From: Elusimicrobiota bacterium
GTDB taxonomy: Bacteria; Elusimicrobiota; Elusimicrobia; Elusimicrobiales; UBA9959
NCBI GenBank assembly: GCA_019135865.1
Contig: JAGVVD010000037.1
Span: forward strand, 12,771 to 76,770
Reading direction: 5' to 3'
Length of the DNA: 64,000 bases
Positions 27,048-27,378 of this stretch are shown in pieces. Below the pieces are notes generated by a model, which did no database searches, had not been told where the DNA came from, and was given only the letters and a program-made list of their open reading frames with translations. A program made the position numbers and the translations under genes. Position 1 is the stretch's first letter. Every line of letters starts with the position of its first letter.

Positions 27048-27190
27048 AACTACCGGGGTCCTGTCGGCGGTTCGCTCCGAAAAAGCAGGGTCTCGCACAC
27101 CGTGCTCGCCCTTCCGACCCTCGCCGCTCGCGCTTACGCAAGCTCGCGGCTCCGGACGGTTTTTCTCCGCGAATCCGCCGCCACCCCCAT
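27048..27190 (+). repeat. Intergenic structured repeat, A-type unit (copy 4)
   Basis: aactaccggggtcctgtcggcggttcgctccgaaaaagcagggtctcgcacaccgtgctcgcccttccgaccctcgccgctcgcgcttacgcaagctcgcggctccggacggtttttctccgcgaatccgccgccaccccc. By eye ~85% identical to 13215-13362. Its internal arms can pair (27065-27075 with 27169-27180). Confidence 0.85.
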
Positions 27191-27224
27191 TGTTTCCCGA
27201 TTTGCGCGGGGCCGCCATAAAGAG

Positions 27225-27378
27225 ACAGCCGGGGGAGGCGGGGCGGCAGCTTAGCAAAACCTTCACGGAGGCCGGAGCATCGTGAGCGCGGAGACCGAGT
27301 GAGGAGGGCCGAGCGCTATGCGCGAGAGCCCGTGTTTTGCGGGCTGCCGCCCCGGCATGCCCCCGGCATAGTTATTCC
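27225..27378 (-). repeat. Intergenic structured repeat, B-type unit (copy 5); forms an inverted pair with 27048-27190
   Basis: 154 nt with 3 substitutions relative to 15146-15299. Its terminal ggaataac (minus-strand sense) supplies the last two codons and the TAA stop of ligA (27372-27380). Confidence 0.9.

Follow-up and report, generated by a model that had tools for sequence, protein, structure and literature searches.

Miniature inverted-repeat transposable elements (MITEs) are shorter than ~200–400 bp, carry no transposase, form long stem-loops as RNA, and are often located at the 3′ ends of genes, with which they are co-transcribed; a role in stabilizing or processing messenger RNA (mRNA) has been reported for the ERIC and REP elements, and bcr1 is named as a repeat family in the same article (PMC3184786). 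Proteobacteria, firmicutes, and cyanobacteria offer well-documented examples of structured dispersed repeats. For Elusimicrobia, a phylum known nearly exclusively through metagenomes, the literature searchable as full text contains no description of such repeats, neither of Elusimicrobia MITEs nor of the terminus sequence reported below. Here, we analyzed a repeat family in a 64,000-nt stretch of DNA from an Elusimicrobiota bacterium (assembly GCA_019135865.1, contig JAGVVD010000037.1, positions 12,771–76,770 of the forward strand; hereafter, the window). A sequence-only reading of the window had proposed structured, REP/MITE-like intergenic repeats of ~150 nt at four loci, among them 27048–27378, and the analysis supported this proposal. 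The repeats are probably lineage-restricted, non-autonomous, structured dispersed elements of the same kind as the MITE, ERIC, Correia, and REP clusters, which would spread in trans and may act as hairpins in mRNA.

The repeat was found at all four proposed loci; BLASTN also tied 15300–15390 and both ends of 42805–43163 to the family. A head-profile scan located seven unit heads within the window, the content of which comprised four full units, three truncated units, and a single member of a second hairpin repeat family of ~200 nt (Table 1). The family pattern AACTAY-N(1-4)-GGG-N(28-38)-CTCGYRCAYMGYRCTCG, covering the conserved head and the first hairpin, gave six matches in the window versus 0.00 expected from dinucleotide shuffles. 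A covariance model (CM) built from 13 units of the A and B subtypes detected in the window exactly the four full units and, weakly, the truncated copy at 42999–43161. The cores of the two B units, B1 and B2, differed at 3 of 154 positions (98.05% identity by BLASTN), exactly as had been counted, and mechanical repeat finding aligned the full units at 95% over 167 nt. The A units, A1 and A2, for which an identity of ~85% had been given, were 86.7% identical over 135 nt by BLASTN, and repeat finding paired 13224–13358 with 27054–27188 at 87%. The surroundings of B1 and B2 are unrelated and the similarity ends at the unit borders, which excludes a segmental duplication. The relation between the subtypes had been put at ~65% identity of A to the reverse complement of B; the measured value was 72–75% with gaps, in the same reading direction. 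Since A and B are similar in the same orientation, A2 on the plus strand and B2 on the minus strand do form the imperfect inverted repeat that had been noticed at 27048–27378, with a length of ~335 nt.

Several contigs of the metagenome-assembled genomes (MAGs) end inside units (L010, 1–152; L018, 1–164; L023, 1–270; L numbers denote the collected loci). The repeats therefore break assemblies, and the copy numbers in MAGs are underestimates. This tendency of MAG contigs to break at repeats is the point in favor of regarding the near-identical copies as products of collapsed or chimeric contigs, an explanation to which we give virtually no weight. B2 and A2 recur with their unique flanks in L004 and L030, and the C fragment and B1 recur in L058, L059, L060, and L061, all of them independent assemblies, and synteny with relatives extends through the unique sequence to either side. 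Thus, the near-identity is not an assembly artifact.

The head of each unit, (A)GGA(R)N-AACTAT, is unpaired and conserved, with AACTA invariant in 42–44 of the 44 copies and with three A/T-rich nucleotides upstream; the earlier description of the termini as GGA(A/G)(T/A)AACTATGCC was accurate. The head is followed by a GC-rich closing stem of ~25 bp, the sequence of which varies among copies with the pairing retained. The closing stem continues into a short A-U helix (CAAAAC/GUUUUG) and then a three-way junction, from which two hairpins branch; hairpin 1 has the loop ACC or AUA. At the other end of the unit, the tail, TGTCTCCTTAT, repeats the head loosely in inverted orientation. Three size classes were distinguished: A of ~150–165 nt, B of ~155–167 nt, and C of ~215 nt with a longer hairpin 2. 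An additional outer stem, CCCCGC.../...GCGGGG, is present in the A subtype, and a 108-nt C variant in L006 has no hairpin 2. Units span 108–220 nt and composites 400–470 nt, and many copies are truncated or nested. The head is Shine-Dalgarno-like (SD-like; AAGGAG) and the tail anti-SD-like (CUCCUU), and the two can pair with each other; we regard this pairing as a consequence of the inverted ends. A small peptide starting from the SD-like head and an ATG was considered and rejected, as ATT, ATC, or ACC replaces ATG in most copies. The recurring open reading frames (ORFs) proved to be spurious frames across the repeat, in agreement with the view that the units have no coding capacity.

The units had also been described as closing on themselves through a stem, and their predicted minimum free energies (MFE) were −58 to −94 kcal/mol, with z values of −2.1 to −8.7 relative to shuffled sequences. 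The long-range stem, in which a compensatory change had been noted, was borne out by strong covariation, as were the inner hairpins. Compensatory double changes occurred at 18 of the 40 predicted pairs among the 13 sequences used for the model. In the alignment of 45 distinct sequences fitted to the CM, 96.3% of the cells were in standard pairs, compared with 78% after shuffling and 41–53% when the partners were slid, and 28 of the 40 pairs were altered on both sides. The covariation score of this alignment was 0.466, versus 0.164 for shuffled and at most 0.069 for slid partners. Positions of the closing stem carry three to four pair types, for example, GGGGCGGCAGC/GCUGCCGCCCC, GGGGUGAGAGC/GCUCUCACCCC, and GGGGGCCGGCC/GGCCGGCCCCC. 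The fold of the unit is kept under constraint. An assignment of the functional strand from the counts of G-U (124) and A-C (6) appositions was withdrawn: the very strand tested had served for the structure prediction, which biased the test, and refolding of both strands showed no clear preference. The consensus energies were −42.4 for the sense and −38.6 for the antisense strand of A/B, and −66.0 and −84.8, respectively, for C. The fold could be relevant to single-stranded DNA or to RNA, whichever its orientation.

A search of the whole window against Rfam 15 gave no matches at the gathering score. At E ≤ 10, the best matches within 27000–27420 reached 12–15 bits versus thresholds of 41–72, and none was credible, in line with the earlier remark that no known RNA family was recognizable. 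In their length (~150–215 nt), their conserved core combined with a variable helix, and their strong covariation, the units resemble structured noncoding RNAs. These features are what would be expected if the units were independent small RNA genes, either trans-acting or encoding guide or scaffold RNAs of a TnpB/IscB or IS110 type element. We find this very improbable: even the permissive Rfam search was empty, no associated nuclease or recombinase gene was found, and no promoter-like sites were detected. Moreover, units lie within operons in either orientation and share nucleotides with stop codons, the variable helix is self-paired and not free for pairing with a target, and truncation and nesting are what decaying repeats typically show.

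Further copies were found by scanning genomes and metagenomes, and they are confined to the same lineage. The pattern scan covered 185,579 species-representative genomes and yielded 24 loci, 23 of which belong to four Elusimicrobia/Elusimicrobiaceae MAGs, namely binchicken_co20_337, TamC13-45, Ess09-09, and UBA11179; the remaining one, in Phyllobacterium, was an evident chance match. At least 14 strict pattern matches were present in binchicken_co20_337. The metagenome scan added 33 further loci, whereas the scanned viral contigs contained no matches to the pattern. With the CM, 55 matches with E < 1e-20 were obtained in 467 kb of collected sequence, 45 of them distinct. Jointly, the pattern and the model revealed upward of 45 distinct copies; apart from the single chance match, they derive from Elusimicrobia MAGs and metagenome contigs. 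The window itself is 98.4–99.7% identical to contig CAYPYG010000028.1 of binchicken_co20_337. Its TpiA is 83–85% identical to those of the groundwater MAGs GWC2_64_44 and GWA2_64_40, its PurH has close relatives in two other assemblies only, and no protein of exact identity to its LigA is on record. According to the TpiA and PurH searches, the host belongs among uncultured Elusimicrobia. On a GWA2_64_40-like groundwater contig (L065, 4880–5030; also L067), a weak CM match of 24–25 bits was detected. It shares the architecture of the units, namely a closing stem, a hairpin with the loop region CACACCGUG, and a second hairpin, but has little sequence identity and no AACTAT head. This match may be a distant relative, which suggests an older and wider family.

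Comparison of orthologous sites revealed insertion polymorphism, both as presence or absence of the element and as differences in subtype. In the tpiA–pduL spacer, the window and L058–L061 contain the 5′ fragment of a C unit and a full B unit, and TamC13-45 (L006) contains an intact 108-nt C unit and no B1, with flanks 88–90% identical. The element is missing there from GWC2_64_44 (L062) and from the GWA2_64_40-like contig (L065), in which the gap between the stop and start codons is 1–4 nt. Both the window and L051 have an A unit in the BMC–EutN spacer; in L062 and L065, this spacer is empty and consists of 58–63 nt with a native GC hairpin. Between ligA and purH, the window, L004, and L030 carry B2 and A2; the site in GCA_964631475.1 (L068) retains no more than a 33-nt head remnant, and that in GCA_009773265.1 (L069) has no element. 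The spacer 42757–43163 carries different subtypes and orientations in L047, with flanks 95–99% identical, and in L056, a 91% relative; the site pairs L011/L016 and L020/L026 likewise differ. These comparisons showed that copies have been gained, lost, truncated, nested, and replaced repeatedly among close relatives.

Intact orthologous units were also compared with their mostly coding 600-nt flanks. The units were 93–99% identical, and the flanks were 83–94% identical. The values were 93.4% for A1 of the window and L051 (flanks 85–91%), 99.4% for L037 and L007 (83–87%), 96.4% for L002 and L033 (86–90%), 97.0% for L005 and L027 (92%), and 98.7–98.8% for B1 of the window and L058 (92–94%). The truncated C fragment was not more conserved than its surroundings (91% versus 94–95%). 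The identity between B1 and B2 (98.1%) is similar to that between B1 and its ortholog in L058; thus, a very recent duplication is not required, and the near-identity fits strong constraint on, or homogenization of, the B consensus.

The high conservation of intact units relative to flanking coding DNA and to the truncated fragment, the strong covariation, the presence of several copies within one bacterial-microcompartment (BMC) operon, and the distant structural relative in L065 all favor an alternative in which intact units are vertically inherited cis-acting RNA modules of operon mRNAs, spread long ago, subsequently kept by selection, and not mobile at present. However, the orientation of the units is not what a strand-specific RNA function predicts. 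According to crude GC3-based gene calls, 25 of the 34 classifiable copies lie between co-directional genes, 13 in the sense and 12 in the antisense orientation, and a further six and three lie between convergent and divergent genes, respectively. The orientation relative to genes is therefore unbiased, and the copies are located in short intergenic spacers. In addition, near-identical strains have different subtypes at one site, many copies are truncated or nested, and the neighboring genes, which include the housekeeping and microcompartment genes tpiA, pduL, BMC, EutN, ligA, and purH, are functionally unrelated. We therefore hold this alternative to be unlikely. A closely allied and equally doubtful version regards the intact units as host-maintained cis-acting RNA or DNA modules, in which the SD-like head paired to the anti-SD-like tail would set mRNA stability or translation between cistrons. 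Such modules could be recognized by some protein in operons such as the microcompartment locus, and this version would account both for the slower evolution of intact copies relative to their coding neighbors and for the persistence of the architecture in a distant relative with hardly any sequence similarity.

The preferred reading of the units as non-autonomous dispersed repeats draws on their copy number and distribution, the composition of the loci, the covarying fold, the turnover at orthologous sites, the conservation of intact copies, the genomic context, and the agreement with the features described for MITEs. When the ORFs of all loci with a length of 100 aa or more were compared all-versus-all by BLASTP, no protein family recurred beside the copies, and in the head-profile scan no pair of heads enclosed a gene-sized segment, or anything longer than ~500 nt; the elements are therefore non-autonomous. 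Spread within the genome would then depend on an enzyme encoded elsewhere, recognizing the conserved head and the folded stem; the candidates are a transposase that acts on inverted ends and one that moves single-strand hairpins. The nested and chimeric arrangements may arise through recombination between copies. By analogy with ERIC and REP, inserted copies would be co-transcribed with the neighboring genes, and the long hairpin might serve in the mRNA as a stabilizer, a processing site, or an attenuator between cistrons. The preservation of the fold could be due to such a role in mRNA or to a need for folding during mobilization.

Another possible explanation is that the units are REPIN-like: a REP-associated tyrosine (IS200-like) transposase present in single copy would move them as single-stranded DNA hairpins, and the replicating form would be an inverted pair such as A2/B2. 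Compensatory change preserves hairpin pairing here, as it does in REPINs (PMC3116915). A tail-to-tail B→/←A pair occurs at two unrelated loci (27043–27378 of the window and L054, 9151–9489), and the family seems long-lived and lineage-restricted. No target-site duplication was found, which fits Y1 transposases. Nevertheless, the units of 150–215 nt with a three-way junction differ from palindromes of 20–40 nt, and the copies are mostly solo, with few doublets. The ends, which read GGARNAACTAT and TGTCTCCTTAT, were not noticed to carry the GTAG/CGTC tag, although no dedicated scan was run, and no Y1 transposase gene is recurrent near the copies in the collected loci. On balance, a REPIN-like nature is rather unlikely, although it is less so than the cis-acting modules discussed above.

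Several observations weigh against the preferred interpretation of non-autonomous repeats spreading in trans and acting as mRNA hairpins. No autonomous partner or cognate transposase was found in the ~0.7 Mb of collected sequence. Target-site duplications, a search for which had been proposed, were not found: in a scan for 2–6 nt, the best result was 7 of 37 matching 2-mers versus 2.2 expected, which is not significant over ~650 offset combinations, and the empty sites are too diverged to place the insertion junctions exactly. Inversion at the extreme termini of solo units is weak (local score of 7.6 versus 5.2 for shuffled sequences). Neither a canonical sigma-70 promoter nor an intrinsic terminator was detected above shuffles when the units were scanned. 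Most compensatory differences divide subfamilies; hence, the cell counts greatly overstate the number of independent events. Both strands fold, with lower single-sequence energies on the antisense strand. Finally, the slower evolution of units could result from gene conversion among copies rather than from selection. Membership among MITEs in the strict sense is not established: the small size, the lack of a transposase, the copy number, and the polymorphism agree with it, but the inverted repeats are subterminal, as the inverted parts are the arms GCCGGGGG.../...CCCCCGGC and the entire closing stem.

The units and fragments of the window are listed in Table 1. The segment 15301–15388, taken in the sequence-only reading for an inverted half of an A unit, is actually the truncated 5′ half of a C unit in the orientation of B1. 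The segment 42807–43161, labeled a composite in that reading, was resolved into a truncated C unit (D3), a repeat of the second family (the E module), and an inverted 41-nt head fragment (D5). At many loci, composites follow the order of unit tail, E module (~200 nt), and inverted head fragment of ~45 nt, with the heads outward. The window composite (42805–43161) represents this structure after deletions. D5 forms its end, and equivalent inverted head fragments terminate the composites in L003, L012, L022, and L024. The E module is a long imperfect hairpin centered on GCGCTATGCGC; its alignment took in the window copy and those of L003, L012, L016, L021, L022, and L024, and its profile gave 24 matches in the collected sequence. 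It often follows a unit tail and sometimes stands alone, without an adjoining unit, and it has no match in Rfam. Since solitary copies also exist, the E module constitutes a separate, co-locating repeat family. Its interpretation as a coding sequence was rejected on the basis of indels between copies that are not multiples of three and of the long palindrome.

Table 1. Repeat units and fragments in the window, and E modules at other loci (CM, covariance-model score).
Feature	Position	Strand	Description
A1	13212–13376	+	A subtype, full length; core 13214–13362; CM 157 bits, E 1.8e-44; MFE −71.2 kcal/mol, z −3.9; antisense to both neighbors, the BMC shell gene 13406–13690 (−) and the EutN gene 12875–13180 (−)
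B1	15133–15299	−	B subtype, full length; core 15146–15299; CM 186.3 bits; directly after the C fragment, upstream of a pduL-like gene (14484–15122, −)
C fragment	15300–15390	−	C-subtype unit reduced to its 5′ ~88 nt, with the head, the 5′ arm of the closing stem, and hairpin 1; BLASTN 82% to 43080–43156 and 81% to A1; head HMM match 15343–15388, E 1e-12
A2	27043–27206	+	A subtype, full length; extra outer stem CCCCGC...GCGGGG; CM 159.5 bits; head oriented toward the purH start (26996)
B2	27212–27378	−	B subtype, full length; core 27225–27378; CM 180.9 bits; tail-to-tail with A2
D5	42805–42845	+	Inverted 41-nt A-like head fragment; head HMM E 8.7e-07; 92.5–94.6% identical to the A2 head
E module	42845–43028	−	Second, ~200-nt long-hairpin family; 5′-truncated; nhmmer E 3.2e-55, profile positions 37–220
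D3	43029–43161	−	C-subtype unit truncated after ~130 nt; pattern match 43097–43156; weak CM match 42999–43161, 33 bits; break after CACCGTCAGCTGCG when aligned to full C units
E module, L003	3179–3398		
E module, L012	4701–4919		
E module, L016	7486–7704		
E module, L022	4445–4663		
E module, L024	4079–4295		
E module, L068	15861–16106		

Heads frequently adjoin gene ends: by the same crude gene calls, 14 of the 46 heads are located no more than 8 nt from a stop codon of the same strand, and in several cases a TAA or TAG belonging to the head itself serves as that codon. At three sites in the window, termini had been reported to lie 0–5 nt from the stop codons of tpiA, ligA, and lptD. The distances were correct for ligA, for tpiA, the TAG of which (15394–15396) is 3–5 nt from the head of the C fragment, and for an 822-aa ORF, the TGA of which (43164–43166) is 2 nt from the D3 head at 43161; the label lptD for that ORF was not. 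The ORF (43164–45632, −) belongs to no Pfam family and has a sub-threshold LptC-like NCBIfam match (19 bits versus a cut-off of 38). The TAA of ligA (27372–27374) lies inside the B2 terminus, and, as claimed, the head provides the last two codons (K, E) and the stop. At 27372–27380, the insertion thereby rewrites the C-terminus of LigA (27372–29384, −), which ends in ...LIKE* in the window and in L068, where the head remnant still gives the last two codons and the stop; in the element-free L069 (9880–9916), LigA ends in ...LIGDVEAGDVV*. The nearness to stop codons is largely due to the scarcity of noncoding space, as illustrated by the 1–4 nt of the tpiA–pduL spacer without the element.

The region ~8800–18100 (−) of the window represents a bacterial-microcompartment operon with genes of a BMC shell protein, EutN/CcmL, a PduL-type phosphotransacylase, and an RnfC-like protein, as well as genes of aldehyde dehydrogenase and DeoC, assigned by homology to L062; tpiA is embedded in it. 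The operon is syntenic with those of groundwater Elusimicrobia MAGs, and three copies of the repeat are located inside it. A 245-nt direct repeat (74% identity) links 234–478 to 13443–13687, the latter lying within the BMC shell gene 13406–13690; the 104-aa ORF that holds the first copy (200–514, −) is probably a paralogous shell protein. Elsewhere in the window, a 1188-aa ORF (1503–5069, −) contains approximately eight tandem 264-nt (88-aa) repeats at 1934–3939, with 60–74% identity, and seven stretches matching Pfam IPT/TIG; it probably encodes a large surface protein.

In practical terms, the repeats interrupt MAG assemblies, alter gene ends, as in the C-terminus of LigA, and mark strain-level variation. 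The family also provides a clean case of a repeat in which compensatory changes maintain the fold and intact copies surpass the adjoining genes in conservation, and it can be used for asking whether such elements are selfish, domesticated, or both.

Among the known systems, ERIC (~127 bp) and RU elements resemble the units in being imperfect palindromes of 100–170 nt, which are intergenic and transcribed, form long RNA stem-loops, are co-transcribed with genes, and vary in chromosomal position between relatives; ERIC elements also have terminal inverted repeats (TIRs), target duplications, and a flanking 5′-TA-3′ (PMC3184786). No duplication was detectable in our units, which, unlike ERIC, belong to another phylum, show no sequence similarity to it, and fold into a three-way junction instead of a simple hairpin. 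Size variants arising from internal insertions and deletions, and insertion in either orientation, are known for ERIC and RU, as observed here. Correia elements possess well-defined 26-bp TIRs and a TA duplication, which were not found in the units. Nevertheless, Correia elements of Neisseria (CREE/NEMIS) are MITEs of ~104–157 bp without a transposase that lie at gene ends and are co-transcribed, like the units, and differences in their positions among close strains, similar to those described above, have been read as evidence of mobility; they also contain IHF sites and promoters (PMC3184786), neither of which was found in the units.

The REP/BIME/REPIN-RAYT systems share with the units GC-rich extragenic palindromes, compensatory changes in hairpins, and inverted pairs, and REP sequences are likewise long-lived and lineage-restricted, with a proposed role in mRNA stabilization or termination (PMC3116915, PMC3733652). 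However, REP sequences are 20–40 bp long, carry a GTAG/CGTC tag, and are tied to a RAYT gene (PMC3733652). With a length of 150–215 nt, the units fall outside the size range of REP and REPIN, and no RAYT gene was found in the collected locus sequence. The bcr1 elements of the Bacillus cereus group, dispersed repeats of ~155 bp, resemble the units: their predicted RNA structure is conserved, compensatory changes occur in it, and they are co-transcribed with neighboring genes. They are unrelated in sequence and host and create a specific TTTAT target duplication, of which no equivalent was found in the units. The family is previously undescribed but of a familiar kind, and it opens no new category of systems.

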